A stretch of 64,000 nucleotides of DNA from Candidatus Magasanikiibacteriota bacterium (GCA_014729395.1 WJJZ01000001.1:3634-67633), one strand, 5' to 3'; shown: positions 3,239-31,912, numbered from the stretch's first letter. Program-made: numbers and translations. The notes: generated from the letters alone by a model not told the origin.

Positions 3239-3251
3239 ATTTTTTTATTTA

Positions 3252-4223
3252 TTATTGTTGGGTTGTTGTTGGTGGTTCAAACAATTTACCTTCTCCGGCC
3301 GGATTATAACCCGCTTTTATTTCTTCTCCGTCCAAATAACCATCACCATCTGAATCGGGATTCAAAGGATCAGTATTCCAAATTAAAACCTCGTCTCCAT
3401 CACTAACGCCATCATTATCCGTGTCTCTTTTATTGGGATCGGTTCCATAACTGGCCTCGCGATCATCATCCAATCTGTCGTTATCGGAATCAACCGGTTC
3501 GCCAAATAATAACTCATCATCTGCCATATCTTCTTCAACCTCATTTATTTGCTCAAGGTCTTCGGTATCAGTACTGCCGGTTGCCGGAATTACCGGTTCT
3601 TCAATCTCAAAACTCTCTTCTACTTGAGTGTTATCCGTTTCCATGTCTGTTTGTTCTTCCGTAGTAAAAATGTCGTCTTGCTCATCCACTTGAATAAACC
3701 TAACATAGACCAGCCAACCGCCACCGCCAATAATTAACAATACCACAACTGTGATAATAACTGCCATTAGTCCTTTACTCAAAACCGGTTCTTTCACAAC
3801 ATATGGTTGACTTTCTTCAGTACCGGCGGGTGTTTGCATACCGGCCCCGGGTGCTTGACCCGATCCTGAAGGTGCTGCAACAGACGGCGGAGAAGCAGGT
3901 GTCTGCGGAGGAGTCTGAATTTTTTGTTCTGGCATTTTCGGACTTGTATTAGTGCTCGGTGGCCGTGCTTTATTTGTATCAATCGGACTTGTTTCCGGAA
4001 CATCGTCCTTTGCTTTCATAACACCGGCTCCCAGAGCTGAAGGAACTTGTGCACTAGCTGAATTATCTTTATCACTTTGTTTTATATCCGGATTAGCCGG
4101 TTGATTTACGTTGTTTTGGGGAGCAGAATCATCTGTTCCGGAAAACATATCTTCAGGTTCACCCACAGGTAAATTACCGGGTACCTGGCCACCTGTATTT
4201 GGAATTGGTTTATCATCAAACAT
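3252..4223 (-). CDS. hypothetical Pro-rich single-pass membrane protein with thrombospondin-type-3-like Ca-binding repeats
   Basis: 323 aa. TM segment LMAVIITVVVLLIIGGGGWLV. C-terminal DTDNDGVSDGDEVLIWNTDPLNPDSDGDGYLDGEEIKAGYNPAG carries DxDxDG repeats. Confidence 0.55.
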   Translation of the reverse strand: MFDDKPIPNTGGQVPGNLPVGEPEDMFSGTDDSAPQNNVNQPANPDIKQSDKDNSASAQVPSALGAGVMKAKDDVPETSPIDTNKARPPSTNTSPKMPEQKIQTPPQTPASPPSVAAPSGSGQAPGAGMQTPAGTEESQPYVVKEPVLSKGLMAVIITVVVLLIIGGGGWLVYVRFIQVDEQDDIFTTEEQTDMETDNTQVEESFEIEEPVIPATGSTDTEDLEQINEVEEDMADDELLFGEPVDSDNDRLDDDREASYGTDPNKRDTDNDGVSDGDEVLIWNTDPLNPDSDGDGYLDGEEIKAGYNPAGEGKLFEPPTTTQQ

Positions 4224-4308
4224 AGTTTGGAATTTAAAATTTTGAATTTAGAATATAGAATCCAGACATTTTTCCAGATTCTAAATTCTATATTCCAGAT
4301 TCTAAATT
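4224..4308. repeat. AT-rich intergenic direct/inverted repeat cluster (AGATTCTAAATTCTATA units)
   Basis: GAATTTAGAATATAGAATCCAGA ... CCAGATTCTAAATTCTATATTCCAGATTCTAAATTCTATA. The unit is present twice directly, plus an inverted variant. Lies between two paralogous small genes. Confidence 0.5.
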
Positions 4309-4707
4309 CTATAAATCCCCTGCCCCTGCCGGGTTATATCCTTTTAAAACTTCCCAACCATCAGAGTAGCCATCACCGTCACTATCGACATTTTTGGGAT
4401 CTGTCTGCCAAACGTCTAACTCGGCCACATCACTCAAACCGTCACCATCTGAATCGTATTCCGTATCACTCGTACCCATAGCCGCCTCTTCTTCATCACT
4501 AATCCCATCTCTATCTTGATCACCGGGAGACAAATCAGGCTCCAAATTTTGCTGCTCCGGTTCTTGTGTTTCTTCTGTCTGAGTTTCGTCGACCGGCTGA
4601 TCCACCTTACTTCTCCGTATGAAAAAAGTCACAAAAAAAACCATTATTGCAGCTATTAGTATTAAACCTATTGTAATTAATATTTTTTTCATATTTATGG
4701 TGTACAA
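4309..4707 (-). CDS. small single-pass membrane protein with thrombospondin-type-3-like Ca-binding repeats (paralog of 3252-4223 C-terminus)
   Basis: 132 aa. TM segment ILITIGLILIAAIMVFFVTFFI. DSDGDGLSDVAELDVWQTDPKNVDSDGDGYSDGWEVLKGYNPAG is near-identical in motif to the 3252-4223 protein. An alternative start at the second Met (4692) would remove the overlap with the giant gene. Confidence 0.55.
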   Translation of the reverse strand: MYTINMKKILITIGLILIAAIMVFFVTFFIRRSKVDQPVDETQTEETQEPEQQNLEPDLSPGDQDRDGISDEEEAAMGTSDTEYDSDGDGLSDVAELDVWQTDPKNVDSDGDGYSDGWEVLKGYNPAGAGDL

Positions 4708-7700
4708 ATAGTATTGGGGGTATCATTTAAAACATCACAAAAACCGGTTTGAATTTGCTGAACAGGACTAATTCTCCAATCAAATTCCAAATTTTCCGAT
4801 TTCCATTCAAGATTGAATACATGCCAGTATCTTGCCGTTGGGTTGGATGATGACTGTGCACTCTTTATTGAAAAACTAGTAATCGGTTTGTAAACGGAGT
4901 GAGCTGGTACTTGTCCTTCGTGAAAAGTGTAAATATCCACAGTTAAATTGCTGTTTGTAAAATTGCTGATTGGTACCTCTCCCAAACTACCAATAGCTTC
5001 AACAAAAAACGCAATAGGTGGTCTCACTTCAAAAGTCCTGTTCAGATAATACCAACCATTGGTATCGATAGTCATGGCTTGAATAAACGTCTTGTCCAAA
5101 CTTTGAACCGGGTGTACAAAAAGCAATCTTGATTGATCACGTGTAAAATCATCACTTGGTCTGATAACTGTATATGGATTACATGCTGTTGGCCAGAAAT
5201 ATCTACCATGATTAAATTCTGTAGAATTATATTCAGCTTCTTCCTTATATGTAGTTTGCTCCATCTGATCGCAATACCATGGATCGGCGGGATTGGTGGT
5301 ATCGGAAATCGCTTCACTTAGATTCTTTATAAGAGCCTTTCTTTCTTCCAGATCTTCGGCGTTTTTGTCAAAAATCTGACTATACAAAACACCGTTAAAA
5401 ATTACATTACGATCATCTTCTTTATCTGTCCAACGCACAACCACCCTGAATACATTGTCAGGAACTGCCGGAGAAACGATATATTCGTGTTCAATCGGCC
5501 CTGTTTGTCCGCTAACCGGATAGCTGAAAAGGTCGCCGTAGTTTAATAATTGATCGCGATTATAGATATTTAGATTTACTGCGGGAGATTTTTTAATCTC
5601 AAGCGGTGAAAAATATAATTTATACTCATCAACACACAAAGCGTCGCTCTCAAGCCTAACCTTTTCACCGGATAAATTTTCACTACTACCTGAATTCCTA
5701 AGTGCTTCTTGAATTGTGTAGTCAAAATATATTGGAGTGCTGCCATTGCCGGTTGATCCCAATCTGCGCCAGCCAAAAGTATACCCGTCTTCAATACCAT
5801 CTCTGTCCGGGTCATACCAACGATACATCAAAACATGTTGGAGTCCGTCAAAATTTCTTTCCGGAAAAGCCCACCAATTTGTTCCTTCACCAAGAGTACT
5901 TTGCGGAACGCCACCACCTGTAATCGGATTTAGAAAGGCCATATTGGCAATGGTATTTATATTTTGATCCAAGCTGGCTGTACACTCAACGCAATTATTA
6001 TCCAATTTCTGACAACTTTCGCTACAGCTCACACTCCCCAAATCAGTACAGGTTAAGACATTGTTCTCATTACACAATGTATAGTTTGGTAAACATTCAC
6101 CATAAAATTGGACATCGTTTGTTATGTAATTCGATATATTATTACTATAATCCTCCTCTTTTAAGTCCAAGATCAAACCATCATCAGGAGCAAGGCAAGT
6201 TGTTTGGTCATTTGGGTCACAGATAATACTCGGATCCTCTGAACAGTGATAACCCAACATGTCTTCTAAATCCGCTTCTGAAGATAAATGGACAAGTGAC
6301 AGAACAAGCAGTTTGCAAGCAATCACTTTTGGATCGTCAAGATCTTCATCCAGCCAACTACAGATCGCATTCATATTATCTTCCGAATTTTCGAGCATTT
6401 CAGGATAGTACTGAACCCTAACCTTTCCATCGTTTAGTCTTCTGACAAAACTCGGGGCTACAGTCTGTGAACATACTTCGTCAGACACGATAATGTTTTC
6501 CCCAACAGTTTCACATTTTTCTCCATTTTCAGCTTGAACAATACCATCACCACAATAAGCGGTCGGTTCTCTAAACAATACATTTCTACAATCAGCCGAA
6601 CAATATGTACAATTTTGTCCATATTCAGGCTGACACGGAATACCATTCTGTGAGCCCAGATCACAAGCTTCCATTACCCCTTCGTTGTTTGGAGCCTGAA
6701 CCACATTATCACCACATGCACCGATATTTTCCGCTTCCACCCCTTGTTGAACAGGTCCTTCATATACACCCTCGCATTCTACCCTGTAACCATTGGAATT
6801 GGTAATATTTAGCTCAACACTGCATGAGTTATTACAATCATACCCACTACCATAACACCTGGTATAATAAACCAAAATATTAAATTCATCCAATTTACCG
6901 TATCGCTCCAAAACCTGATCACATGAAAGTCCATAACTGTGACAAATTTGATTACCGGTAATATTGCTTGTACATTCCGGGATAGCTTGACCCTCATAGT
7001 CCCCACTGGAACTGTCAAACACGTCGTAATTTCCTCTACTTATGTAAATATCGGTTGAATTATCTGCTGTAGAAGTTGTTAGATAAGGGCCTGCATTGTA
7101 ACAAGAATTATTCTCTCTTTCGCACTGCTCACTACAACCATCAAAATTATCTAGGTTGCCATCGTCACAGGTTTCATAATCAGGCTGGACTAAATTGTCT
7201 CCACAGTATCCACCATAACCTTGACAATCAATTGAGCAAGATTTTTCCATTTCAAAAGCATATTGCCCCCAAAGAGGTCTCATAGACCAATCACAAAACT
7301 CATATTCTTCTTGAAAAACTGTATCTCCGCAATAACCAAGTCCGGACAAAGCATTACAATCTTCACCACAATGACCATAAGAACCGTTTAATTCCCCATC
7401 ATCACACAACTCTCCTTGATCAACCACTCCGTTGCCGCAAATACCAACACCGGGGCATTCTGTTGGTTGCCAAGTGCACTGATCCGTACATATTCGACAA
7501 TTAGCCGCATCAACACGTCCGGGTGGATCACAGCTCTCACCTGCATTGACCACAGAATCACCGCACACCCCTCCTTCGGGAGTATGAGTTTGATTTGGCA
7601 CACAATATGGCTCTGTATCAAATCTACCCCTATTGATACCATATCTGTCTATTATAGAGTTATTTAAGCTTAAAAATTCAAGCGGGGCATGGAAAATATA

Positions 7701-10700
7701 ATTTTCATTTGATTCGTATTCATATTCATAGACGCTCATTTCTTGGGGGCATATATATTTTGATTGTTCTGCATTCCAGCATGTGTTCACCTCAACATTT
7801 GGATCAACAGCTTCACAACCGGTCCACTGATTGACCGGGTCAACCGCTACACCCTGTATATCCGAACCCAATCGATTACCCCAAGAAGGCCATTTTGATA
7901 CGGTATAACCGGGTATAAAAGTACCGGAAGATAAAAATGGATAGGTTCCGTTTTGACTTCGATATATATCCAAATTTCTTTGTGCGCCGGAAATATCCTC
8001 CAAACGATCCAAATCTCTTAAAAATTCAGTCCTGTCAGCATTACACTCCATATCAATCAAACCTGCATCCTGATCCTCGCATTGTGGTGGAACTGAATTA
8101 TCTTTTATACAACGGATATAACTACCATAATCCCCTTCAAGAGAAAGTCTATGTATCGTCGGAATATTTGAAACGAATTTTCTTACCCAATTACCCACCA
8201 AACTAGAACGTGAACTCCAATAAAAAGATATTGCCGGATTACCAAATAAACCACTTAAATCCGTAAAGCCGTTTGCAACAGCGTTAAAATTGGAAGCACC
8301 TCCGACTTTTAGTAATTCACCTTGATTGGTTCCTCTAAATCCAACGTCATCGGAACATAACTCACCCTCCGGACCCGGACCCAAGCCTTCACACATTCCC
8401 TCTTGTTCTTCTAATATTTTCCACTCTTCATCTGTCGGAATATGCCAGCCAACTGGACAAATCCCGCGACTTCCGGATATATTTGAATAATTCATTGACT
8501 CATCCCATCTGTACAATCCACCAAAATTGTTACAATTTGTTTCATTATTTTCCAAGCAATATTTTTCTATAATGTTGTTATCTGTCTGAGCTTGCGAAGA
8601 GTTAATCATGGTTCCAATATTAATATTTTCAGCCATCCAACATTGGCTTCCAATTTGGAGTGTACCGTACGATTGACCTTGATAATCAAGTTGATCACCG
8701 CAAGTAAATTCAGGAGGACATTCTATTGTTTGCTCCACCTCCATACTCGGACAATCGAAATCATTTAAACAAAACCCAGCCGGATCACCACCATCTACAG
8801 GTGTACAATAACGCAGGTCACTCATGTTTGTATTAAATTTCAAAGAATTAATCAATTGTTCAAACACCTGTCTTGTTTCTTGTGAAGCATTAATATTTAT
8901 ACTGAATAGATAAACATTTCTGTAAATAGTTGAATCTCCGGTTGCCTCCTCACCGGTCAAATTATATGCATTTATATAAAAGTTGTTATCATCAGCCAAA
9001 CCCTGGTAGCCGTCCACTTCAACTCGACGCATATTGTCAACATTTTCAAATCCTTTTGAACTGTACCATTCATTAATATTTAAAAAGTCCGGGTTGGAAA
9101 AAATTTGCACCCCGATAACATCATCATTTTTGTCATTGAAAAATAAAACTTGTTTTTGTGTATCCTCTGCCAATTCAATTTCTTGATCAATGTCAACAGG
9201 TCTGATAAAGGGCAAATCATCGAATGTCACACCGGATACCCCTGCATCCAAACAATAACTCATTGTGAAATAATAACCCTCCCTCTCAAAAACATCATAG
9301 GGACGCCACAGATCCCCCATCCTTTCCGGCCATGGTTTTTCACAAAACATAGCCGTCAAATCAAATAAGTCCGTAAATATAAGGCCGGTCTGATTATTTT
9401 GTGAATCAATATCAACAGTAATTTTCGCACTTAAAACTCCTGTTTCATACCCTTCAACCTCTCGAGATGCAATGTTCACAGTCTCCGCATTTGAATTATC
9501 ACCTTCTACAGGTATTGAAAAAACCCGGGAATCATTTGGTCCCCATGCCCATTCCCAATAATAGACACCGGGTATTCTAACGATTTCCTGTTCTATACCG
9601 GTTGGAGTTTCACTAATTGCCATAGCTATAAAATTGTATTCTTGTTGCGGAGCGTAAAATAAATGACTATCAGGCACAGCTTCAACCGCTTTAAGTTTAC
9701 AAATATCACTCCCGGTTCTAAATTGCCAAGCGTCGGAAATATTTGAATTTTCCGGATTTTTAATACCCACACCTCTTGTATCTCTTATTCCATCACCGCC
9801 GCCTGTAAGCAAAACCGCATAGGTTGTCTCGGGATCAAGTAAATCTTCTAAATATATCGAAACCGTACTGCTTCCAACCGTTCCGTCGGGCAAATAAGAA
9901 TAGCTAACTTCCGGTCTGGTACTAATAGCACCACTGCACCAAGTTTCGATTGCCGCATAGCTTTCATCACCGAAAAATTCTAAAAAGAAATTTTTAACTC
10001 GATGCCATAATCTAGCAAAAAAACTATCAGACTGATTATACGCCAAGGCTCCGTTTACAACACCTGTTACGTTTTGTTGGCCTTGTTCAGTACAATCAAA
10101 ATCTTGATCATCGGAACCACTTGCAATTATTAAATTTCCCGACAAGGTGTCATCGTCAATTTCACCATCAAAAGTAACACTGATCAAAGAGTTACGACAA
10201 ATAGAATTGGATCCGGACTCCGGATATTCATCAATCCTGGAAAGTCTCTCAAAACAACACGAATTTTCCGCCACACCATATATGTTATCGCTATTATCAG
10301 CGCAATCATTATACAAACCATCTCTTGGAGAATCATATTCGGTATAACCACATTGCAAATAATAATCAGCGTCTCCGACAACAGTGCCTGCCGGAAGATT
10401 TATTGGTGTAGTGGAAGTTCGCTGCATTACAGCTTCTGCTTCAATTTTTGCAAATTGCCTTAAAGTTTCTTCGTCTACCACACCTTCACCGATTGCCGTT
10501 GCCACCTGAATAGGATTTAAACCTGCCTGTAAATTTGCATCTAAAACTTCCAATTCACAATCGGAGCTTTCGCCTATTCCGACAACAGCATCACCACAAA
10601 GAGATGATTCCGAATAAGATACTGAGGATCCGGCCAAGGTGCATTCTTCCGTACAACCTTCAACTCCGGAATCACACTGACTAAACGGAGTGTCACATAC

Positions 10701-13700
10701 ATTAATAAATAAACAACGATCATTACAATTATTATCCGTTATTCCATTTATACCTATTTCGCACTGTTCCCCATCTTCAAGTACACCATTACCACAAACA
10801 CTGACTGCATTTAGACACTCAACACTACCTGAAAAAGCTGAATTACTACACCATGCTTGAGACAAAGGTGTACCCGTATGAAGACAAGAGTTTGAGCACC
10901 CATATTCACCGGTCAAAGACAGATCGCCGGCAAAAGAGGCATCATCCAAACTTATACCGATATCACAATCCTCACCTACTGTTACATCTCTGCTGCCGCA
11001 CCATGGTAAATCCAAATTTCCCTGGGGCTCCGCTGTACTGGATCCGCTCCAAGTACAATTATTATTACAAAACTCATTGAGTGCCGGATCACATTCTTCA
11101 CCCAAAGCGGTTTCTATTTCAGCATTTCCACAATTTTCACCTGTCGAACCCGGGCGCAAACAGTTTAGAGTACAGGACTTACCAACTTCTTCGCCTATTT
11201 TTGCTATGTCGCAATCTTCTCCGGGGTCAAGCACACCATTTCCGCACAAGAAAGGATCTCTTGTATAACTGTCTCTTTGTATATCCGATCCGGAAGGTAC
11301 GCAACCCAAATTACAAAATGAATTCGGATTCCCTTGAAGTGTAAAATCCGATAAATCGACAACCGATTCATCCAAACTGCGCCAATCCCAACCATAGTTC
11401 CAAGGGTTTAATTCTTGTCCATAGGGATTACAGGTATCCGGCGACCCATAAGAAAAAGCGCTATAGCGAGTTTTTTCTCCAATTACATTTGACACATGTG
11501 GATTGGGTTGTAGTCGAATATCGTTTATTTGACAATAGACATTGTCGGATTTTGTTCTAAATTTCCATGAAAAATCATCCGGCAAGGCTTTGCCGTCTCT
11601 TTGCTCGGGTTCAAACTGGCCAATCGATACAATCCCGGTTTGCCCTCCTCTTACCGTGACTTTATACCATGAATCTTTTTCCAAAACTTGGAGTGGTAAT
11701 AAATATGAATGCAGTTCGAAATAATTTTGATTATCAGCCGGAACATCCAAAGCTATCTCCGTCTCATCAACTTCGTTACACAACTCATCACTACATTTTT
11801 GCAAATAAATATTATTCTGGTATGTTTCCGGATTCATATGTCTACTGAACCGAACTCCGAAACCGGTATTTATACAGGCCTCTGCACAATCAGGCCAAAA
11901 ATCCACAACTTCAGGTTCTTGTAAATCAATTATCAATGTACTGGAAGCAATAATTTGATTCTCTACCAACACCCCTCCGGTAGTGGTGGAAATATCGGTC
12001 TGAGCTATAATTTGAACACTATCAGGTGCGGTATGAGCTTTTGCATCGCCTTTTGCTTTTGTGTCAGTATGATATTCATCAGACTCAACCTGAATTGTAG
12101 CAGCGGAATTATTATCCGTGGTCCAATCCCAACCGAGTCCATCCACGGGCAATACCGAACACTCTTGATTTCCTCGTCCCCATAAATAATAGTAAAAAGG
12201 AAGCTCGCCAAGAATTTCAGTAATATATTCCGGAGGGTTCATACCGGCTGCAGTTAAAGTACACAATTCACCACCGGTTTTAAAGTCAAAACAATAAGCC
12301 GTACCATCACCACAAGGTCTAGTTATCTGTAAAGGTTGTGACGGTACCTCGGCTACACCAAGGACGCTTTGTTGTGGTAGTGATCTGATCCCCTCAAGTA
12401 ATTCTACATGATACCAAGTATTAGGCTCCAGATTCTCGGTTGTCGACAATCTTATTACTTCCTCTTCATAATTTAAATTAATATCTTCAATCGCCACACT
12501 GTTTTCTTCGCAATCTATTTCTTCACCATTGCCACAACTGTATAGAAGCACATTATCCGTAAAAGAATTCTGATCCATAGGCAATGTGAACCTGACTGCA
12601 ATTTCTGAATTCAAACATGCTTGCCTACCTTTTCTCCATCTTTCCCAAGGTGTTGGTGACGGAAATTCCAATTGCAAGTCGGTATCAAACCAATCATCTT
12701 CTTCACAAGCTTCAACCACTTGAGGCACCTGAGGCATATAGCCTGTGGTAAAACGCCAAGTATATCCGGCAGATCGCACCTCACCCTTACAAGCGGTTCC
12801 AACCGGTCTCCATATTCCCGCATCTTCTCCGACCGTACAACATTTGTGAGTTTCTGAAATTGGTGAATCAGGATTTTCCCTACAATCTTCAACAGTATAT
12901 TGCACTCCATTACTTAAAATAGTTTGACCGTCTACTTCTATACCAACTCTGATCGGACCGGTCTCCATTGAATAATTATCATTTGTCTCCGGTATTAAAG
13001 TTATTATTTGATTATTTGAAGCGGAAATTAACCAATCACCGGGTGTCAAAGTTGAAAGCCAAGTATTGCTTACTTCTTGGACATTGGCATCTTTCCACCA
13101 AAAATATACAACCGGTGAAGTACCAAAGTTAATGCCGGTTATATCCAGACCTTCACTACCAACCGGCAAAGGCGCAGGACCGGTATTTGGACTGAGCCTA
13201 CATATACTTGGCAAAGCGGCACCATCTTCTACTGTTAGTGCCTCGACACCGTCAGTTTGTGCCAATACACCATCTACATTTACCGATAAATAATATGTTC
13301 CGACTGCGGTTTCTTCACCTATCTTTACCACTATTTGTTCATCACTCCAAGTATCACCGCAAACTGCCGGCAATATTGTTTCCGTGGGAATACAATTTTC
13401 ATCATTGCAAGCAATACCGGCTGTATCTGCCAAATGTACAGTTCCTGGATTTTGTCCCAAATTTCTTCCATATATGGTTAGATAACTGCCCGGTGTAATT
13501 ACCGTTGGACTTATGGATTCAACGACCGGTTCAGTGTCAGTGTCACCATCACCCAAAACTGTAAAAGGAATACCATTGCTTAAAACATCATTGACTGAAA
13601 CTTTTACAGCCACTTCTCCGGGGTTTAAACTTTCGGGAACAGAACTGTCAATGGAATTATCTGACCAAGCCGACACCTGTGATCTAAAATTTCCGAATTG

Positions 13701-15533
13701 GATAAAATTGTTTCCTTGATCACCCCCAAAAGCACTCCCCAAAGCCAATATTTCTGTCCCGGGCAAAGCAAAATCAACCGGCACTTCAGGAGATTGCACT
13801 TTTGTTTTAACACTACAAAGACCCGGTCTTGAAATGTCATTTTTTAAAAATAAACCATTTCTCGGACCATTGATCGGACCATTATTATTTATAGTTGTGT
13901 CAATCAATAAATCACCATTCATAGGAGCGCTTACCCGTATAGCGCTTTCAGACCCAAGCGGCAACCGATTGTCATCAGGAACCGCAACCACTATCCAATC
14001 GTTTGTCCACACTTGTGTATCACCGCAATCAGCCAAATTGGCTTCAACCCAATCATCACCAACAGAAAACTCAACCGTACCGATAACAGATCCAAAATTT
14101 CTACCCAAAACGGTAACAAAATTATTTGACGCCCCCTCCCACGGATCAACGTCAAGAATTACAGGTAAGTCCACACATTGATTGGTCTCAGGATCACAAA
14201 AACCTGATGCGCAATCCGAGTCATCAATACAATCATCACCACCCTGCCCCAAACATTCGTCCTCATATTCGGGTGATATTGGCCTACCGGAAGCGTCGCA
14301 ATGCTCACCCACAATCACAAAAGAACTCGTATCAACTGAAAAATTATGATCAATATCATAACCGACAGCTTCAACTATAAATCTCTGTCTCGCTTCTGTG
14401 GTAGTCGGAATCGTATATGAGTATTCAAAGCTGTATGAATCAGAGGAATCATCTGATAATCTCGGACCATCATATAGCGTTAAACCGTTGTCGGGTGTAG
14501 AATCTTCTTTGTAAATTTGAACTCTTATAAAAGAATTGCCAAAATTATCATTCATTTCCACTTCTATGGGGTAAGACCGACCTCTTCGCAAAACAACACC
14601 GTCATTGATATCATTATTGATCGAAATTTCTCCCATAACGGGATTATCGATATCTATATTATTGTCAGTATCAACTCCAAAAATCGCGGTCCTTGGATAA
14701 GTTCCGCAACTGGTATCAATTTCCAAAGGATTGCCCGATTCGTCGATGACATCTTGATTTACTTCAACTCTATAAGCACCGGAGCTAAAACAGGTTTCTT
14801 GTCTTTCAGCTGAACATAACTCATCAGTGTCATATGTCGCTTCGACAATGGATCTATTGCCGTCAACATAAACAGCATCAATAGCTTGAACATCTGTACC
14901 ATCCTTTAATACTTCAAAAACATCTGAAGCGGCAACGGTTCCATCTAATTCACGGCTGAAAATGACACGAACAGCAATATTATTCATTTCCAAAGAAGCT
15001 GTATTCGGAGTAATGCTTTTTACTACAAAATGTCTGTCTTCACAATTAGGAAAATCCCCTCCTCCACAAATATCCGGGTGTAAATTGTAAAAATTTGGAT
15101 CACTACATCTGGGATCTACTGTTTCTCCACCCGGTGTAGTTGTGAAACCGGTGGCATCAGATAATCTATTTAGAACGAACTGAGTAATAGCAAATGATGA
15201 TAAAATAATTGCCAAACCAATAGCACCATTAATTAAAATCTTTTTGGCAGTACTGATTTTCTCTTCATTACCCCCTGAAGTCATAAAAACAAAACCACCG
15301 TACAAAACGATCAAAACTGCAATAATCCCTAAAAATGTCAAAATAGCCCTGATAATTTTTGCAATTGTTATTCTAATGTCTTGTGATCCCAAAGCTATAT
15401 TCTCTTCAACTTCAGTTATTCCCAGTGTATCAGCTTGGGCATTTACCGTCTGAGCGACTGCAAAAAAACCGCCAAATATGACAAGCAATAAGAGAAAAAT
15501 AATAATATTTTTTTTCAATTTTTTTACGGTCAT
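4695..15533 (-). CDS. giant (3612 aa) secreted/membrane-anchored multidomain surface protein: N-terminal signal-anchor plus 2-TM module, about nine Myxococcus-type cysteine-rich repeats (CGNGxxxxGExCD), IPT/TIG-like and Ig-like domains, and a Fibrobacter-succinogenes-major-paralogous (FISUMP-like) domain
   Basis: Single uninterrupted ORF. Cys-rich repeats include CGNGVLDPGEDCD, CGNGVLEDGEQCE, CGDSVVNAGESCD, CGNGVVDQGELCDDGELN, CGDNLVQPDYETCDDGNLD, CGDNVVQAPNNEGVMEACD and CGDGIVQAENGEKCE. FISUMP-like segment is GGLYRWDESMNY...CPVGWHIPTDEEWKILE. TIG-like segments resemble ISPTVITPGSYLTIYGRNLG. Ig-like strands follow the IAVRFTLPMDQNSF pattern. Confidence 0.85.
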   Translation of the reverse strand: MTVKKLKKNIIIFLLLLVIFGGFFAVAQTVNAQADTLGITEVEENIALGSQDIRITIAKIIRAILTFLGIIAVLIVLYGGFVFMTSGGNEEKISTAKKILINGAIGLAIILSSFAITQFVLNRLSDATGFTTTPGGETVDPRCSDPNFYNLHPDICGGGDFPNCEDRHFVVKSITPNTASLEMNNIAVRVIFSRELDGTVAASDVFEVLKDGTDVQAIDAVYVDGNRSIVEATYDTDELCSAERQETCFSSGAYRVEVNQDVIDESGNPLEIDTSCGTYPRTAIFGVDTDNNIDIDNPVMGEISINNDINDGVVLRRGRSYPIEVEMNDNFGNSFIRVQIYKEDSTPDNGLTLYDGPRLSDDSSDSYSFEYSYTIPTTTEARQRFIVEAVGYDIDHNFSVDTSSFVIVGEHCDASGRPISPEYEDECLGQGGDDCIDDSDCASGFCDPETNQCVDLPVILDVDPWEGASNNFVTVLGRNFGSVIGTVEFSVGDDWVEANLADCGDTQVWTNDWIVVAVPDDNRLPLGSESAIRVSAPMNGDLLIDTTINNNGPINGPRNGLFLKNDISRPGLCSVKTKVQSPEVPVDFALPGTEILALGSAFGGDQGNNFIQFGNFRSQVSAWSDNSIDSSVPESLNPGEVAVKVSVNDVLSNGIPFTVLGDGDTDTEPVVESISPTVITPGSYLTIYGRNLGQNPGTVHLADTAGIACNDENCIPTETILPAVCGDTWSDEQIVVKIGEETAVGTYYLSVNVDGVLAQTDGVEALTVEDGAALPSICRLSPNTGPAPLPVGSEGLDITGINFGTSPVVYFWWKDANVQEVSNTWLSTLTPGDWLISASNNQIITLIPETNDNYSMETGPIRVGIEVDGQTILSNGVQYTVEDCRENPDSPISETHKCCTVGEDAGIWRPVGTACKGEVRSAGYTWRFTTGYMPQVPQVVEACEEDDWFDTDLQLEFPSPTPWERWRKGRQACLNSEIAVRFTLPMDQNSFTDNVLLYSCGNGEEIDCEENSVAIEDINLNYEEEVIRLSTTENLEPNTWYHVELLEGIRSLPQQSVLGVAEVPSQPLQITRPCGDGTAYCFDFKTGGELCTLTAAGMNPPEYITEILGELPFYYYLWGRGNQECSVLPVDGLGWDWTTDNNSAATIQVESDEYHTDTKAKGDAKAHTAPDSVQIIAQTDISTTTGGVLVENQIIASSTLIIDLQEPEVVDFWPDCAEACINTGFGVRFSRHMNPETYQNNIYLQKCSDELCNEVDETEIALDVPADNQNYFELHSYLLPLQVLEKDSWYKVTVRGGQTGIVSIGQFEPEQRDGKALPDDFSWKFRTKSDNVYCQINDIRLQPNPHVSNVIGEKTRYSAFSYGSPDTCNPYGQELNPWNYGWDWRSLDESVVDLSDFTLQGNPNSFCNLGCVPSGSDIQRDSYTRDPFLCGNGVLDPGEDCDIAKIGEEVGKSCTLNCLRPGSTGENCGNAEIETALGEECDPALNEFCNNNCTWSGSSTAEPQGNLDLPWCGSRDVTVGEDCDIGISLDDASFAGDLSLTGEYGCSNSCLHTGTPLSQAWCSNSAFSGSVECLNAVSVCGNGVLEDGEQCEIGINGITDNNCNDRCLFINVCDTPFSQCDSGVEGCTEECTLAGSSVSYSESSLCGDAVVGIGESSDCELEVLDANLQAGLNPIQVATAIGEGVVDEETLRQFAKIEAEAVMQRTSTTPINLPAGTVVGDADYYLQCGYTEYDSPRDGLYNDCADNSDNIYGVAENSCCFERLSRIDEYPESGSNSICRNSLISVTFDGEIDDDTLSGNLIIASGSDDQDFDCTEQGQQNVTGVVNGALAYNQSDSFFARLWHRVKNFFLEFFGDESYAAIETWCSGAISTRPEVSYSYLPDGTVGSSTVSIYLEDLLDPETTYAVLLTGGGDGIRDTRGVGIKNPENSNISDAWQFRTGSDICKLKAVEAVPDSHLFYAPQQEYNFIAMAISETPTGIEQEIVRIPGVYYWEWAWGPNDSRVFSIPVEGDNSNAETVNIASREVEGYETGVLSAKITVDIDSQNNQTGLIFTDLFDLTAMFCEKPWPERMGDLWRPYDVFEREGYYFTMSYCLDAGVSGVTFDDLPFIRPVDIDQEIELAEDTQKQVLFFNDKNDDVIGVQIFSNPDFLNINEWYSSKGFENVDNMRRVEVDGYQGLADDNNFYINAYNLTGEEATGDSTIYRNVYLFSININASQETRQVFEQLINSLKFNTNMSDLRYCTPVDGGDPAGFCLNDFDCPSMEVEQTIECPPEFTCGDQLDYQGQSYGTLQIGSQCWMAENINIGTMINSSQAQTDNNIIEKYCLENNETNCNNFGGLYRWDESMNYSNISGSRGICPVGWHIPTDEEWKILEEQEGMCEGLGPGPEGELCSDDVGFRGTNQGELLKVGGASNFNAVANGFTDLSGLFGNPAISFYWSSRSSLVGNWVRKFVSNIPTIHRLSLEGDYGSYIRCIKDNSVPPQCEDQDAGLIDMECNADRTEFLRDLDRLEDISGAQRNLDIYRSQNGTYPFLSSGTFIPGYTVSKWPSWGNRLGSDIQGVAVDPVNQWTGCEAVDPNVEVNTCWNAEQSKYICPQEMSVYEYEYESNENYIFHAPLEFLSLNNSIIDRYGINRGRFDTEPYCVPNQTHTPEGGVCGDSVVNAGESCDPPGRVDAANCRICTDQCTWQPTECPGVGICGNGVVDQGELCDDGELNGSYGHCGEDCNALSGLGYCGDTVFQEEYEFCDWSMRPLWGQYAFEMEKSCSIDCQGYGGYCGDNLVQPDYETCDDGNLDNFDGCSEQCERENNSCYNAGPYLTTSTADNSTDIYISRGNYDVFDSSSGDYEGQAIPECTSNITGNQICHSYGLSCDQVLERYGKLDEFNILVYYTRCYGSGYDCNNSCSVELNITNSNGYRVECEGVYEGPVQQGVEAENIGACGDNVVQAPNNEGVMEACDLGSQNGIPCQPEYGQNCTYCSADCRNVLFREPTAYCGDGIVQAENGEKCETVGENIIVSDEVCSQTVAPSFVRRLNDGKVRVQYYPEMLENSEDNMNAICSWLDEDLDDPKVIACKLLVLSLVHLSSEADLEDMLGYHCSEDPSIICDPNDQTTCLAPDDGLILDLKEEDYSNNISNYITNDVQFYGECLPNYTLCNENNVLTCTDLGSVSCSESCQKLDNNCVECTASLDQNINTIANMAFLNPITGGGVPQSTLGEGTNWWAFPERNFDGLQHVLMYRWYDPDRDGIEDGYTFGWRRLGSTGNGSTPIYFDYTIQEALRNSGSSENLSGEKVRLESDALCVDEYKLYFSPLEIKKSPAVNLNIYNRDQLLNYGDLFSYPVSGQTGPIEHEYIVSPAVPDNVFRVVVRWTDKEDDRNVIFNGVLYSQIFDKNAEDLEERKALIKNLSEAISDTTNPADPWYCDQMEQTTYKEEAEYNSTEFNHGRYFWPTACNPYTVIRPSDDFTRDQSRLLFVHPVQSLDKTFIQAMTIDTNGWYYLNRTFEVRPPIAFFVEAIGSLGEVPISNFTNSNLTVDIYTFHEGQVPAHSVYKPITSFSIKSAQSSSNPTARYWHVFNLEWKSENLEFDWRISPVQQIQTGFCDVLNDTPNTICTP

Positions 15534-15548: not shown

Positions 15549-17585
15549 TTATGGCACTAAACTTCTAAGGTAGTCCAAACATTGTTCATTGTCAGGTACA
15601 ACACTTGCACCTTCATCCATAGTTTGAGCACAACCCGTATCATTTTCTTCGTCAAAACTGACATTTACACAATTTACAGTCTCAATAATATTCCCAAATT
15701 CATCTTCTACCACTTGACATTCGTTCATTTCGGCCGGTCCTCTTCCCGGGTATAGACATTGTTGGTTAAGAGATTTCACTGTACTCGGTATCGTTGGAAA
15801 ATAGAATAAATCCAAATTGTTGGCACCAAATTCACGGTGGGTTATATATAAATCACTTCCCCCGTCTTCTGTAATCTCCGTATAAGTGTGAAACCATATA
15901 TCATCCAAGCACTCATCCGGATCGTCCGGCAAACAGTAATTTGCCGGATATTCTTCTAAAACTACATCCGAAAACGTACTTGACCACATTTCTTTGTTAA
16001 AGTGAACAATAATAGGTGTATTAGCCGGTACGTTTTCTGCGTCAACCGGCGGAGTGATTTCACTAATGAATGGGATTGATCTATCTATGTTATTTTGGAC
16101 AATAAAACGCCAAAGATAATTATCCGCTTCTTGTTCTTCTCCGGATATTTCTCTATTATCGGGTACATTCGGCTTTCCATCGACCACACCATCAGCATTT
16201 CCGTCCAATGCATTTCCCGCCATATCCATAACTCCGGAAAAAGGTACGGCTTCGAACGAGTCCTCTGAATAGATTTGTGCAGTTCTAATTAAAGCCAAAT
16301 AAAAATTCAAGCATTCACTATCGTTTACAGCACAGTCAAATATAGGCAGACAATACATTGCATCTCCACAACTATTTGTACCGCACTGTTCTGCTGAAAC
16401 AAATTCAACTGTTTTATAACTATTGGTTAACGACCATTTACCTGCCGGAAGATCTTGGGAATTTTCAGCCGCATCCAATATTATATTTGTAAAATTTTCA
16501 GTTAAACCCTGAACCGCTGTAGGATCCATAGCTTCACTAAAATCAATTCTAATGATACTGTTTCTGGAAACAGTTCTTTCGTTTCTAGGATAAACCCGTG
16601 ATACTGTCGGAGGATCAAAATCAATGTTTGAACCTGTTTCAAATTCCCATAAATAGTGACCGCTTCTCTCATTTACAAAAGCACTTGTTTCTCCATCTTC
16701 AATTAAAATATTCTCAGTCAGATCCACACTATACCAAGTATCCGGTTCCAGCATTTCCAAAGGACGTAAAACAAAAGTATATGTACTGCTGGCATCTCCT
16801 TCATAAGAAGCCATAGCCGCGGCCGGCAATAATTCAACCGTTCCCGTGGTTGAACGATAAAGTCTGACAGCATTTTGATTTAATTGGTCACAATCAAGCG
16901 ACCAATCCAATATACCATCGTCCGGAACAATACAATCTCCAATAATTCCATTTTGATTGCTATCTTCAATTAAACTGCTGGCGTCAATCGCTTCTCTGAA
17001 TGTAAAAGCGATTTTGGTATTTCTTTTTACATCTGTTTGATTGCGTTCGGGATAATGATCTTTAACGATTCTACCGAGAGAACCACTACCGGAAAAAGTA
17101 TTAAAAGCAGGCCTGGTAATACCGCCTCCTCCTCCGGGAAAAGCTCCCGTAGCCCTCTGCAGACTGCTTAATACAAATTGAGTTATGGCAAAAGCCGACA
17201 AAATAATCGCAAGACCAATAGCACCGTTTATTAGTAATTTTTTACCACGCGCCACCTTTTCTTCATTTCCGGCCGAAGTCATTATTGTAAAACCCGCATA
17301 TATAACAATAATAAGAGCTATTATTCCCAAAAATCCTAAAACTGCTCTTATAATCCTGGCTATTATTATTCGAATATCACCTCCACCCAGGTTTAAACCG
17401 CTCTCGTCAACAATCTCCACCCCCAAAGCATCCCCTTCTGTCTGAGCGTTCACAATATCAAAATTTACAACAAAAAAAGTAAATATTAATAAAAAAATAC
17501 CTACTATCAAAACTATAGCAGTAATTTTCCTATTTTTATTAAATTGTCGAATCCGATAAGGTAGCATGGAAACCTCAGGACTCAT
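15549..17585 (-). CDS. large (678 aa) secreted/membrane-anchored protein with the same N-terminal signal-anchor plus 2-TM module as the giant protein, followed by bacterial Ig-like domains
   Basis: The N-terminal ~160 aa align with the giant protein N-terminus (DIRIIIARIIRAVLGFLGIIALIIVIYAGF...MTSAGNEEK...KKLLINGAIGLAIILSAFAITQFVL). Ig-like pattern IIRIDFSEAMDPTAV. Confidence 0.75.
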   Translation of the reverse strand: MSPEVSMLPYRIRQFNKNRKITAIVLIVGIFLLIFTFFVVNFDIVNAQTEGDALGVEIVDESGLNLGGGDIRIIIARIIRAVLGFLGIIALIIVIYAGFTIMTSAGNEEKVARGKKLLINGAIGLAIILSAFAITQFVLSSLQRATGAFPGGGGGITRPAFNTFSGSGSLGRIVKDHYPERNQTDVKRNTKIAFTFREAIDASSLIEDSNQNGIIGDCIVPDDGILDWSLDCDQLNQNAVRLYRSTTGTVELLPAAAMASYEGDASSTYTFVLRPLEMLEPDTWYSVDLTENILIEDGETSAFVNERSGHYLWEFETGSNIDFDPPTVSRVYPRNERTVSRNSIIRIDFSEAMDPTAVQGLTENFTNIILDAAENSQDLPAGKWSLTNSYKTVEFVSAEQCGTNSCGDAMYCLPIFDCAVNDSECLNFYLALIRTAQIYSEDSFEAVPFSGVMDMAGNALDGNADGVVDGKPNVPDNREISGEEQEADNYLWRFIVQNNIDRSIPFISEITPPVDAENVPANTPIIVHFNKEMWSSTFSDVVLEEYPANYCLPDDPDECLDDIWFHTYTEITEDGGSDLYITHREFGANNLDLFYFPTIPSTVKSLNQQCLYPGRGPAEMNECQVVEDEFGNIIETVNCVNVSFDEENDTGCAQTMDEGASVVPDNEQCLDYLRSLVP

Positions 17586-17622: not shown

Positions 17623-18072
17623 TTATTTGTTTTCTATTTTTTTCATTACAATCTCTCGAACAACAGATCCGTCAGCTGATGAACCAATCTTACTCATGAC
17701 CGCGCCCATTACCGGGCCCGGACTTAAGCTATCTTCACTTTTCATTTTTTCAATTTCTTCATCAACTATTTTTTCTATTTGCTCAGAACTTATCTGCTTA
17801 GGTAGATATTCTGACAAAAAATCAATTTCTTTTTCTGTTTTTGCAGCCAAATCAGCTCTGTCGCCTGATTTAAAATCAACAAGTGAATCTTTAAGTTGTT
17901 TCACTTGCTTTTTAGCTACTTTTTCCACATCTTTATCATCTAAAGATTCTTTCTTGTCAATCTCTTCATTTCTAATGGCCGACCAAAACATCCTTAAAGT
18001 GGATAACTTGTCATTATCCCCTTTCTTTAGGGCTGATTTAATATCAGCTTGTATTTTTTCTCTTAAAGTCAT
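17623..18072 (-). CDS. yqeY: GatB/YqeY domain protein
   Basis: 149 aa with YqeY-like sequence (REKIQADIKSALKKGD...LSTLRM...EYLPKQISSEQIEKIVDE...GPVMGAVMSKIGSSADG). Classic rpsU-yqeY pairing. Confidence 0.8.
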   Translation of the reverse strand: MTLREKIQADIKSALKKGDNDKLSTLRMFWSAIRNEEIDKKESLDDKDVEKVAKKQVKQLKDSLVDFKSGDRADLAAKTEKEIDFLSEYLPKQISSEQIEKIVDEEIEKMKSEDSLSPGPVMGAVMSKIGSSADGSVVREIVMKKIENK

Positions 18073-18075
18073 GGT

Positions 18076-18312
18076 TTATCTGGTAAATTTATCTTCTTCA
18101 GGAAGTTTACCAATTTTACGCAAATAATTGGTTTTACTAATTATCTGTCCTCTTTTTACCGCCTCTTTCTTCTTCATATTCTTACTTTTCTTTGGATCGT
18201 AAAATTGAATTTTCCTAGCTTGTAGTAACTTACCGGATTGAAGCCAGCGCTTTTTAACTCTACGCATAAAGACTTCAAAAGACTCTCCTTTTCTTCTTTT
18301 TACTTCTGACAC
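18076..18312 (-). CDS. rpsU: 30S ribosomal protein S21
   Basis: KRRKGESFEVFMRRVKKRW...KKEAVKR is typical of S21. Probable GTG start at 18312 preceded by AGGAGG. The ORF track extends to 18321. Confidence 0.8.
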   Translation of the reverse strand: MSEVKRRKGESFEVFMRRVKKRWLQSGKLLQARKIQFYDPKKSKNMKKKEAVKRGQIISKTNYLRKIGKLPEEDKFTR

Positions 18313-18415
18313 AAATTTCACCTCCTCGTGAAAAATTATTCGATTTATTAAAAATATTTCTGGTCTATTTGACCACCAAATATTGCCTAAATTATAAAAG
18401 ATTTTTTCGATTCAG

Positions 18416-19921
18416 TCAAATATTTTTACCATGTTTATCAAATATATCCGCAACCTTTTTCATCATCTGAGATTGATCTATAATTTCCTGTATTCCCGAA
18501 TCCATATCCCTTACTATTAAAGTTCCATCCTGAATCTCTTTTTGGCCTAAAATAAAGCAATATTTAACTCCGAATTTATTTGCCAACTCCAGTTGTGATT
18601 TCAGTGAATGTTTGGCCAGATTATGCTTTACCGCATAACCTTGTTTGCGCAACTCTTCAATCATCTTTAGGGCGCCTCTTCTTGCCAATTCACCCAATTG
18701 AGCAAAATATATCGGATTACTGACTTCTTTTTTTTCTTCATTTTCTTCTTTGTTCTCTTTTTTCTTCATAACCGAAACAATCCTCTCCAAACCCAGGGCA
18801 AATCCACATCCAGGAGTTTCCTGACCGCCAATCTGCTCAGACAATCCATTATACCTTCCTCCACCACCCAGAGCATTTTGCGATTTCTGTTCCTCGTCTT
18901 CTTCGTAAAACTCAAAAACCGTATCAGTATAATAATCCAAACCTCGAACCAAAGTTGATTGTAAAACATAAGGAACTTCCAACTCATCCAAATATTCCAA
19001 AACTTTCATAAAAAAATCTTTAGGCTTATCACTTAACCAATCGATTATTTGTGGTGCCTCTTCTATCACCGGCTGACATTGTTCTTGTTTGCAATCTAAA
19101 ACTCGTAAAGGGTTTTTATTGATTCTTCTTTTGCAATCATCACATAGATATCCACGTTTTGAACGCAAATACCCAACCAGTTCAATTATATAATTTTGAC
19201 GATCATCAAGTGTGCCAATACTATTAACATGGACTGTTGTATTAATACCCAAATCCTTTAAAAAATTATATGCGATAATAATCAGCTCTGCGTCGATTAC
19301 CGGATCATGTCCCCCTATTGACTCACACCCAAATTGATGAAATTGCCTGAACCTGCCGGCTTGTGGACGATCATGTCTGAACATTGGTCCCAAATACCAA
19401 ACCTTTACCGGTTGCGGAAGAGTCTGCATGCCATGACTGATATAAGACCTCATTACAGATGCGGTAGCCTCCGGTCTAAGGGCTATTTTTGTCTTATCTC
19501 TATCCTCAAATATATACATTTCTTTATCAACCACATCCGTTCCTCTGCCAATTGAACGCACAAAGAGACTGGCTTCCTCCATTATTGGTGTTTCGATTTT
19601 CCCATATCCATAAACATTGGATATACTCTCTGCTTCATGCCTCATTTTTAACCAATACTCCTCATCTTTTGGTAATAAATCTTTCATCCCTCTAAGAAGT
19701 GAAGGGGTTTTTGCTTTTTTATTAACTCTTATATCACCGGCAGTTTTCATTTTTTTAGTAGCGGCGGTTTTTTTTGCGGTCTTTTTCTTCTTTTTTGTTG
19801 TTGTCTTTCGCTTCGTCTTCTTTTTTGCCGGAGTTTTTTTCTTTGTGGTTTTTTTTCTGGCCGGCTTTCTTTTGGTGGTCTTTTTCTTTGTTGTTTTGGA
19901 TTTTGTTTTTTTTCTTGGCAT
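18416..19921 (-). CDS. hisS: histidyl-tRNA synthetase with ~75-aa Lys/Thr-rich N-terminal extension
   Basis: Class II aaRS motifs (LRGMKDLLP..., ALRPEATASVMRSY, GGGGRYNGL) and an anticodon-binding C-terminal domain. N-terminus is MPRKKTKSKTTKKKTTKRKPARKKTTKKK... Confidence 0.9.
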   Translation of the reverse strand: MPRKKTKSKTTKKKTTKRKPARKKTTKKKTPAKKKTKRKTTTKKKKKTAKKTAATKKMKTAGDIRVNKKAKTPSLLRGMKDLLPKDEEYWLKMRHEAESISNVYGYGKIETPIMEEASLFVRSIGRGTDVVDKEMYIFEDRDKTKIALRPEATASVMRSYISHGMQTLPQPVKVWYLGPMFRHDRPQAGRFRQFHQFGCESIGGHDPVIDAELIIIAYNFLKDLGINTTVHVNSIGTLDDRQNYIIELVGYLRSKRGYLCDDCKRRINKNPLRVLDCKQEQCQPVIEEAPQIIDWLSDKPKDFFMKVLEYLDELEVPYVLQSTLVRGLDYYTDTVFEFYEEDEEQKSQNALGGGGRYNGLSEQIGGQETPGCGFALGLERIVSVMKKKENKEENEEKKEVSNPIYFAQLGELARRGALKMIEELRKQGYAVKHNLAKHSLKSQLELANKFGVKYCFILGQKEIQDGTLIVRDMDSGIQEIIDQSQMMKKVADIFDKHGKNI

Positions 19922-19942
19922 AATAATTATAAAAATTGAAAA

Positions 19943-20599
19943 TTATAAATTGTAGTTGGGACTATCCAGAATATCAAACCTATTAAAGGGCCAACCTCGA
20001 AGCCAGGCTCTGCCCACTATTTCGTTTTTACTTACCGGGCCAAAACGTCTTGAGTCAAAACTGGCATCCCTATTATCACCCATCACAAAATATTGACCGG
20101 GCCCGAGAGCGATGGTGACTGAACCGGGAGTCACTTCTTCAAGATAAATTTCCTCAACAACAATACCCTGAGGGTGATCTTGGTTAAAAATTATTACCTT
20201 ATTATCTTCAACCTTGACTCTTTCACCCGGCAGTCCAATTATTCTTTTCAGATAATAATCTTTATCGCCGATTGGTGCCTTAAAGACAACCACTTCTCCA
20301 CGCATCGGTTCACGGAAACGATAACTTATTTCATCAATAATTAAATACTCTCTTTCAAAAAAATTAGGTTGCATTGATTCACCTTTGACATAAAAAGGTT
20401 TAAACAAAAAATATCGTACAAGGACTATGGTAATACCGGCCAGTATGACAATCTTTACCAATTCAAGGAAAAACAATCCAATCGTTGCCAGCACACCCTT
20501 TTCCACATCCGAGACTACTTTATTTTGTTCTGTCTCGTTTTTTATTTCAATTTCTTCAGTATCGATGTCATGCTCTTTTTTTTCTTCATTTTTTGGCAT
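19943..20599 (-). CDS. lepB: signal peptidase I
   Basis: SPase I boxes GESMQPNF, KRIIGLPGERV and VMGDNRDASFDSRRFGPV. N-terminal TM helix after an acidic lead. Confidence 0.85.
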   Translation of the reverse strand: MPKNEEKKEHDIDTEEIEIKNETEQNKVVSDVEKGVLATIGLFFLELVKIVILAGITIVLVRYFLFKPFYVKGESMQPNFFEREYLIIDEISYRFREPMRGEVVVFKAPIGDKDYYLKRIIGLPGERVKVEDNKVIIFNQDHPQGIVVEEIYLEEVTPGSVTIALGPGQYFVMGDNRDASFDSRRFGPVSKNEIVGRAWLRGWPFNRFDILDSPNYNL

Positions 20600-31423: not shown

Positions 31424-31912
31424 CTACTTGCGACGGAGAACCCGATCGTAGACGCCCCAGACGTCGTCGAGCCAGTACCAGTCCCGAACCCACTCCTCGA
31501 CGTTGTTCCAGTAAACGCGACCGGCGTGCTCGGGATGGTCGGGAAGACGCCAGTCCTGGATCACGAAGACGAACTTGCGGAACTCGGACGGGATGTCCTG
31601 CCGGTTTTTGAACAGGTACCGGCCTTCGTCCTCTCCGCAAGGGTGTCCAGTCATCGCGTCCGTTCGCTTGATCATCGTGTGACCGACGACCGAGATCTCG
31701 CCGTCCCGCAGGAAGGCGTGTACCTCGTACGAACGGTTCTCGGGACCGATGTTCTCCATCGTGAGGATGTCAGGCTTGCCACTCTTGAGAGCGGCACGCA
31801 GAACGGTCGCCAGCCGTCCCTGATCCTCGATAAAGGTTTGTTTCTCGCTGGTTGTAAGATCGTCAGGCAGTTGCCTGATGACCGATGCGACGAACTCTCT
31901 GTCCTGATTCAT
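31424..31912 (-). CDS. hypothetical protein encoded by a ~60% GC segment (probable horizontal acquisition)
   Basis: Continuous ORF. Start assigned to the internal Met (MNQDREFVAS...) because AAGGAG lies 7 nt upstream. The ORF track extends it to 31981 into low-GC DNA. No confident family assignment. Confidence 0.5.
   Translation of the reverse strand: MNQDREFVASVIRQLPDDLTTSEKQTFIEDQGRLATVLRAALKSGKPDILTMENIGPENRSYEVHAFLRDGEISVVGHTMIKRTDAMTGHPCGEDEGRYLFKNRQDIPSEFRKFVFVIQDWRLPDHPEHAGRVYWNNVEEWVRDWYWLDDVWGVYDRVLRRK

Follow-up and report, generated by a model that had tools for sequence, protein, structure and literature searches.

The VirB2-like pilins of Patescibacteria are a recognised component of their type IV secretion system (T4SS), which is derived from monoderm conjugation systems (Quinonero-Coronel et al. 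2025, PMC12102498). They occur in 1948 assemblies, near virB4 in 1135, and often form arrays of 2-11 genes with a mean identity of 25%; the same survey detected no PrgB-like adhesins in Patescibacteria (PMC12102498). The pilin array within the T4SS cluster of Southlakia epibionticum is essential (Wang et al. 2023, PMC10633639), and a review emphasises how remarkable a pilus would be in the T4SS of a monoderm, and that its existence is still unproven (PMC12857230). The family presents a puzzle in that it is essential in the one species tested, yet belongs to a monoderm T4SS that 'should' have no pilus. Here we analyse a stretch of 64,000 nucleotides (nt) from Candidatus Magasanikiibacteriota bacterium (GCA_014729395.1 WJJZ01000001.1:3634-67633; hereafter the window), in which two adjacent open reading frames (ORFs), A and B, encode large proteins that carry a hairpin of this family at their N-terminus. 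Among the loci that we examined, it is the N-termini of such a fixed pair of very large, adhesin-like proteins that have the best-conserved hairpins of the family. The module (PF18895) is already known and proteins of this kind are present in databases; the fused architecture and the conserved pair appear to be new.

Gene A lies downstream of gene B, both on the minus strand, with 15 nt between the B stop codon and the A start. The two ORFs and their N-terminal parts are arranged as follows, with positions counted from the first letter of the window and lengths in amino acids (aa).

4695-15533, minus strand: ORF A, 3612 aa; signal peptide, VirB2-like hairpin and a very large acidic, Cys-rich region predicted to be extracellular.

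15438-15533, minus strand: A signal peptide, aa 1-32; Sec-type, with a predicted signal peptidase I site VNA|Q (A32|Q33).

15381-15437, minus strand: A acidic segment, aa 33-51, the mature N-terminus; predicted to lie outside the cell, with a low predicted local distance difference test score (pLDDT).

15168-15380, minus strand: A two-helix membrane hairpin, aa 52-122; the PF18895 domain (Pfam match residues 56-120).

15549-17585, minus strand: ORF B, 678 aa; signal peptide, VirB2-like hairpin, Gly-rich linker and four Big_5 immunoglobulin (Ig)-like domains.

17445-17585, minus strand: B signal peptide, aa 1-47; predicted site VNA|Q (A47|Q48).

17166-17378, minus strand: B two-helix hairpin, aa 70-140; the PF18895 domain (Pfam match residues 74-138).

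The module common to A and B is confirmed as real and correctly placed, and the similarity lies far beyond chance. BLASTP returns a single strong local alignment, between residues 4-129 of A and 19-147 of B (57% identity over 129 residues, E = 6e-30), the hairpin stretches are identical at 53 of 70 positions (75.7%), and a six-frame scan with a hidden Markov model (HMM) finds the module in the window confined to these two ORFs. An earlier note on this DNA had described a giant protein and one of 678 aa that share an N-terminal module at ~75% identity, built as a signal peptide followed by two hydrophobic helices with a short loop; all of this holds, and sequence, hydropathy and AlphaFold2 agree on the topology. 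The note went too far in calling the rest of the two proteins unrelated, as both contain several Big_5 domains and show weak local matches to each other (E = 0.001, BLASTP). This C-terminal region measures ~540 aa in B and ~3480 aa in A. Pfam matches in A comprise PF18895, three Big_5 domains, two TIG domains and Fib_succ_major, with a DUF4215 match below threshold (20.2 bits; cut-off 27), and NCBIfam adds a FISUMP domain and a cysteine-rich acidic repeat. The protein contains 142 Cys residues, and its composition is 15.6% D+E versus 5.5% K+R.

At the start of both proteins, a Lys-rich N-terminus leads into a hydrophobic leader that ends with VNA|Q, after which come two more hydrophobic helices. 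VNA|Q is a predicted signal peptidase I site of the classical type, at which the leader would be cleaved. The 'AQ' that closes the leader is conserved throughout our alignment of 31 family sequences, and the leader of Agrobacterium-type VirB2 has a comparable A-Q at its end. An acidic stretch of ~20 residues follows, which in A includes a motif, D-x-x-G...L-G, that is partly conserved in the same alignment, and a D-I-R motif then precedes helix 1. In the AlphaFold2 model of A, helix 1 spans aa 53-84, the loop TSGGN aa 85-89 and helix 2 aa 90-128; the last of these starts with the polar EEKISTAKK and extends six residues beyond the hairpin part, to nt 15150. From residue 61 to residue 120 the block means of pLDDT are 89-95; the flanking blocks have 78-79. 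Hydropathy and a motif check of A and B reveal no further transmembrane or hydrophobic segment, no LPXTG motif and no C-terminal anchor. Since the N-terminus and the loop are Lys-rich, the positive-inside rule predicts that the ends of the hairpin lie outside and its loop in the cytoplasm, which would make the whole C-terminal region extracellular. As the sole membrane attachment, the hairpin would then hold this region on the cell surface, and the acidic, Cys-rich, Ig-like composition of the region fits such a location. Two familiar kinds of surface anchoring were considered and rejected: a sortase-anchored adhesin, as A and B have neither LPXTG nor a C-terminal hydrophobic segment, and an SLH-anchored S-layer protein, as the Pfam scan contains no SLH domain and A and B have only Big_5 (SbsA-type Ig-like) in common with S-layer proteins.

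The hairpin belongs to PF18895 (T4SS_pilin). The A and B modules score 32.7 and 32.0 bits and the full-length proteins 27.1 and 27.2 bits, so that modules and full proteins alike pass the gathering score of 26.6 bits. The best NCBIfam match of both modules is NF045849, the Mbov_0395 family of pilin-like conjugal transfer proteins from mycoplasma integrative and conjugative elements (ICEs), with 41.8 bits for the B module and 37.4 bits for the A module, and 38.4 and 30.7 bits for full-length B and A; the cut-off of 40 is reached only by the isolated B module. For a comparison with the wider VirB2 group, a profile built from the 31-sequence alignment was set against a profile of 18 genuine PF04956 pilins, collected with an Agrobacterium VirB2 sequence (98% identical to a database VirB2) that served as bait only. 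Hhalign matches the two with a probability of 72% (E = 3.4e-5, score 35.8) over 57 colinear columns that run across both helices; among 62 reversed or column-shuffled controls, the highest values were a probability of 5.6% and a score of 22.6. A published survey, moreover, typed a 723-aa orthologue of B, KKQ27636.1, as 'VirB2', from a match to the MPF-T virB2 profile of CONJScan that covers 82% of the profile. The hhalign and CONJScan matches support a relationship to VirB2 at the level of the superfamily and not membership of PF04956, and the profile evidence places the module in PF18895, with VirB2/TrbC as probable remote relatives. The resemblance to VirB2/TrbC pilins put forward in the earlier note consequently survives in part: it is supported at superfamily level (PF18895, NF045849, hhalign, CONJScan) and fails for PF04956 itself, and the Flp and type IV pilin families likewise give no match. 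A sequence-profile search of the PDB matched only 'Pizza' repeat proteins, an artefact summed from six chance 18-residue matches, which we discarded.

Comparison with described systems brings out what is shared and what is not. With the known PF18895 pilins of Patescibacteria, A and B share family, leader, two-helix hairpin, conserved loop and phylum, at 36-68% identity to short members. The known pilins, however, are described as small standalone proteins (about 110-150 aa), often encoded in arrays of 2-11 genes and often near virB4, whereas A and B measure 3612 and 678 aa and are encoded as a fixed pair within a block of housekeeping genes; two tandem genes may count as a minimal 'array', though not as one that neighbours virB4. 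Conservation differs too: the hairpins of A and B are 55-68% identical across species, as against a mean of 25% within known pilin arrays. The conjugative TrbC, VirB2 and TraA pilins of Gram-negative T4SS have in common with A and B a long leader cut at A|Q (in A and B by prediction), two hydrophobic helices, a short loop with a basic residue and a colinear profile match. They differ in that A and B give no significant PF04956 match, have a loop longer by 8 residues, carry a large domain at the C-terminus, come from a monoderm host and are encoded outside a T4SS operon. VirB2 and TrbC undergo head-to-tail cyclisation; in A and B, where the free C-terminus is replaced by a large domain, this would be impossible. 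The Mbov_0395 proteins are small two-helix proteins of a monoderm T4SS as well, but they are short and encoded on ICEs.

A parallel in design comes from an unrelated fold. In modular type IV pilins, for example PilB and PilC of Streptococcus sanguinis, a pilin module is fused to a functional domain. The plan is the same, a polymerisation or anchor module that bears adhesive or enzymatic cargo, but those proteins have a class III signal peptide, one N-terminal helix and a different machine, and the likeness is one of analogy. With A and B, the notion of a modular pilin, until now associated with type IV pili, would also apply to the T4SS pilin fold, which is unrelated to theirs. VirB5, located at the tip of the pilus, and the PrgB-type surface adhesins of Gram-positive conjugation systems possibly fill the same role, contact with the target cell, without being pilin fusions or having any sequence relationship to A and B.

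Large fusions of this kind are widespread. A profile search that covered 1.84 billion cluster representatives returned 90,684 family members at E <= 0.001. Among the 150 best representatives, 35 have a length of 1000-5008 aa and one copy of the module, at residues 1-135; several others are about as long as B. A scan of one genome per species with a single peptide pattern yielded at least 577 relatives, of which the best 80 loci were analysed. The B-A pair is present in 64 of these 80 reference-genome loci, with exactly two modules on the same strand in the same arrangement as in the window; a protein of ~600-1000 aa is followed directly by one of ~1500 to more than 3400 aa (many ending at the edge of the 10-kb flank). 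By these counts, the fusion is not peculiar to this genome. Homologues of the C-terminal part are present for B in all 64 pair loci and for A in 61. The upstream order lepB-hisS-rpsU-yqeY recurs as well: homologues of rpsU, hisS and lepB are found in 56-60 of the 64 loci, and of yqeY in 43. The pair-carrying genomes are titled Magasanikbacteria, Uhrbacteria, Falkowbacteria, Buchananbacteria and relatives, and the seven that appear in the genome table of the survey all belong to class ABY1. Because the arrangement of the pair, the homology of its C-terminal parts and the synteny are kept across genomes of class ABY1, B-A can be read from these sequences as a vertically inherited core chromosomal pair of this class rather than a mobile T4SS island. 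Many pair-carrying metagenome-assembled genomes (MAGs; L004, L005, L006, L010 and others) bear the title 'uncultured Gammaproteobacteria bacterium' (MAG TPA_asm), although they have the gene content and synteny of Patescibacteria; the titles look like placeholder mislabels.

Traces of the pair can be found in published material. The B orthologue KKQ27636.1 (L023:7802-9970) is listed as 'VirB2' in Supplementary Table S3 of the survey, as gene 531 of GCA_000990355.1, without remark on its size (PMC12102498); the giant A orthologue that adjoins it is absent from that table. UniRef names KKQ27636.1 'SbsA Ig-like domain-containing protein'. The sequences of A and B from the window, looked up exactly in the public protein collection, have no entry there. 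The description of the type species of class ABY1 notes unusually long proteins and does not note their N-termini (PMC11809585). Our literature search, whose coverage excluded most subscription journals, found no prior description of fusions between pilins and giant proteins in the Candidate Phyla Radiation (CPR), in line with what the earlier note had supposed. Surveys based on HMMs score the large fusions as 'VirB2', and their pilin counts therefore include such proteins.

In both proteins, conservation is highest in the hairpin. That of A has a mean identity of 65% to 14 complete orthologues, compared with 21% for the rest of A, and that of B 60% to 64 orthologues, compared with 32% for the rest of B; the conservation extends to the polar loop and to the D-I-R motif before helix 1. 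The two hairpins also track each other. The mean identity between A and B hairpins is 0.68 within a genome, and between genomes it is 0.585 (A-A), 0.55 (B-B) and 0.55 (A-B); in 55 of 65 genomes the hairpins of its own A and B are more alike than the A hairpin is, on average, to foreign A hairpins. Recent gene conversion was considered as the source of the 76% identity in the window and rejected, since the codon identity of A and B at identical residues (0.37) is at background (0.39). Across the family, the fraction of same codons is 0.49 within and 0.39 between genomes and reaches 0.83 in some loci, values that shared codon usage inflates within genomes.

This pattern bears on whether the hairpin is a mere anchor. 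A passive lipid anchor is expected to be among the least conserved segments of a protein, and since the hairpin is the most conserved one and tracks its neighbour within the genome, we infer that it is not passive and packs specifically. It could alternatively be a pilin-derived, lineage-typical signal-anchor for surface or S-layer-like proteins, devoid of any specific partner or tie to a T4SS. The module is extremely common and versatile in Patescibacteria, where it is found standalone, in tandem and fused; the pair sits in a housekeeping context with conserved synteny; the UniRef name of the B orthologue refers to SbsA, an S-layer protein; and with no LPXTG and, by Pfam, no SLH domain, some other anchor is needed. 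We nevertheless judge such a role quite improbable, because the hairpin exceeds the remainder in conservation by a factor of 2-3, its polar loop and D-I-R motif included, and because the A and B hairpins co-vary within genomes. By the earlier note, a common lineage-specific signal-anchor on many unrelated proteins would speak against a pilin; this holds in part, as the module is very common in the lineage and is found alone, in tandem and joined to different domains. Even if the hairpin served as an anchor only, it would still be a main means by which these wall-bearing cells hold giant proteins that lack a sortase motif.

Other forms of the hairpin are informative about how it may pack. About 90 of the 150 best profile matches contain tandem copies, in the form of polyproteins with one signal peptide and 2-17 hairpins. 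Examples are P0051 (552 aa, six hairpins, 12 predicted membrane helices), P0052, P0056 (1775 aa, 17 copies), P0065 and P0100. These polyproteins may represent 'pilin bundles' joined covalently, or precursors for cleavage between the repeats, and their tandem build points to side-by-side packing of hairpins. Of 158 members of array-type loci, 134 stop no more than 40 aa from the hairpin. Those that are longer (285-559 aa; in L001, L044, L047, L077 and L086) mostly have an extra domain between the leader and a C-terminal hairpin. Since cargo precedes the hairpin in these array members and follows it in A and B, either end of the hairpin can carry cargo; giant cargo on the C-terminal side, by comparison with the array-type loci, is a feature of the B-A pair alone.

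In three independent contigs, arrays of 9-12 PF18895 genes adjoin an ABC-type solute-binding protein gene (SBP_bac_1/SBP_bac_8), at L001:4585-15067, L084:5074-10962 and L086:5450-13901, with no virB4 within 10 kb of any of the three. As these arrays lie away from virB4 and beside solute-binding or type IV pilus genes, the family name 'T4SS pilin' is not proof of function. The type IV pilus genes are N_methyl pilin genes next to the arrays of L001 and L086, joined in L001 by a T2SSE ATPase gene. Their presence would accord with a type IV pilus or Flp-type pilin that uses a class III signal peptide, a prepilin peptidase and PilB/PilC assembly. For A and B we hold such an assignment to be extremely improbable and reject it, as neither protein has an N_methyl or Flp match in Pfam, the leader is of Sec type with an AXA-type site instead of G|F-T-L-x-E, and two helices rather than one follow it. 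Small genes of PF05635 ('23S rRNA intervening sequence protein') occur within the pilin array of L001 (1846-2094, 4166-4540 and 10537-10902) and also in L002 and L003. The Avd accessory proteins of diversity-generating retroelements, elements common in CPR, belong to this four-helix family, and targeted diversification of array members is, by that analogy, a possibility.

Based on the above data, we favour, with moderate confidence, a model in which A and B are modular VirB2-type pilins, whose membrane-resident hairpin anchors the protein, docks with like hairpins and displays an adhesin-like ectodomain. Both proteins would be made with a Sec signal peptide, and signal peptidase I is predicted to remove the leader at VNA|Q. 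The mature hairpin would then sit in the cytoplasmic membrane with its ends outside and with the TSGGN loop and EEKISTAKK on the cytoplasmic side, and it would hold the Ig-like, Cys-rich, very acidic C-terminal region on the cell surface. There, this region most likely binds a partner cell or a surface. Within the membrane, the hairpin may pack specifically with like hairpins, that of A with that of B, and probably with free VirB2-like pilins or a T4SS base encoded elsewhere. Self-association of hairpins is plausible given the polyproteins with 2-17 copies. A and B would remain in the membrane rather than enter a pilus, a preference for which the housekeeping block in 56-60 of 64 loci, the lack of a virB4 gene nearby and the very large cargo all argue. 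On such a model, A and B would be concrete candidates for the contact-making part of the system.

Alternatively, the VirB4 machinery could pull the two hairpins out of the membrane and assemble them with short pilins into a VirB2-type fibre, in which A and B would form the first (tip) layer or be minor subunits of low abundance. Such a fibre would bring adhesins of its own, in place of the VirB5 and PrgB-type adhesins that Patescibacteria lack; the survey indeed found no PrgB-like adhesin there (PMC12102498). The family of the hairpins includes the T4SS pilins that are essential in Saccharibacteria, the hairpins are the best-conserved part of A and B and co-vary, and VirB4 is present in six of the seven pair-carrying genomes in the survey, the exception being a 619-kb assembly. 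In solved conjugative pili, both pilin termini are surface-exposed, as both ends of this hairpin are predicted to be, and either could bear cargo. We nonetheless consider incorporation into a pilus rather unlikely. The pair never adjoins virB4 in the loci examined, the B orthologue being flagged 'VirB4 proximity: No' in the survey, and large arrays of close standalone relatives likewise lie away from virB4, by a solute-binding gene and, in two of three cases, by type IV pilus genes. For VirB2-type pilins, a cargo of ~3500 aa borne by a pilin of ~70 aa would be unprecedented, and no PF18895 protein has been demonstrated in a pilus (PMC12857230, PMC10633639). It is also unlikely, in our estimate, that the monoderm T4SS of ABY1 makes a short fibre or stalk tipped by a layer of the two conserved pilin-adhesin fusions, B and the giant A. 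If it did, such fusions at the pilus tip would stand in for the 'missing' VirB5/PrgB-type adhesin, and in these host-dependent cells contact with the host would be coupled to a secretion machine that is essential.

Several observations weigh against the membrane-resident model that we prefer. PF04956 (TrbC/VirB2) stays below its threshold of 27.9 bits, the only trace being a match in B of 10.6 bits (E = 0.7), and in a structure comparison the hairpin resembles thousands of other helical hairpins and is not discriminated from any of them. The earlier note proposed a search for virB4 and virB6; in the 64-kb window these two genes and virD4 are absent, and the ~40 ORFs that were scanned or recognised as part of the ribosomal cluster are all housekeeping. 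The strong conservation of the hairpin could stem from constraints of membrane insertion or processing, and the similarity of A and B hairpins within genomes from old or occasional gene conversion. The label 'adhesin', finally, is taken from domain types only and should be read as a prediction.

The surroundings of the pair are given below.

17623-20599, minus strand: synteny block lepB - hisS - rpsU (S21-like) - yqeY, upstream of B (Pfam); it is given as context and implies no functional link to the pair.

19943-20599, minus strand: lepB (signal peptidase I), four genes upstream of B.

2039-4707, minus strand: three genes downstream of A, encoding single-pass membrane proteins with acidic low-complexity regions (sequence, Pfam).

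The window is a low-GC (about 0.37) piece of a small bacterial chromosome and contains a 16S rRNA gene, tRNAs, a ribosomal-protein cluster and other core genes. ORFs of 425 and 185 aa at 27664-28941 and 31424-31981, both on the minus strand, have no Pfam match at E <= 0.01. A scan of the window for promoters and terminators found 82 promoter-like sites (61.5 +/- 8.7 expected) and 12 terminator-like sites (13.7 expected), which we judge to be at chance level; a weak hint comes only from one strong promoter-like site that precedes rpsU, together with the lack of a terminator from yqeY through B to A. LepB processes VirB2-type propilins, and a lepB homologue occupies the same position in 56 of the 64 loci, a linkage that may be plain conservation of the housekeeping block. 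Of the three genes downstream of A, the third (2039-3238) has no Pfam family above threshold, and the two nearest A (3252-4223 and 4309-4707) encode C-terminal bacterial TSP3 calcium-binding repeats (PF18884). A homologue of these membrane-protein genes lies directly 3' of A in 11 of 31 evaluable loci, a partial association. The TSP3 proteins and the neighbouring membrane protein are possible partners of A and B, and, A being very acidic and Cys-rich, a calcium-dependent surface complex with A is conceivable.

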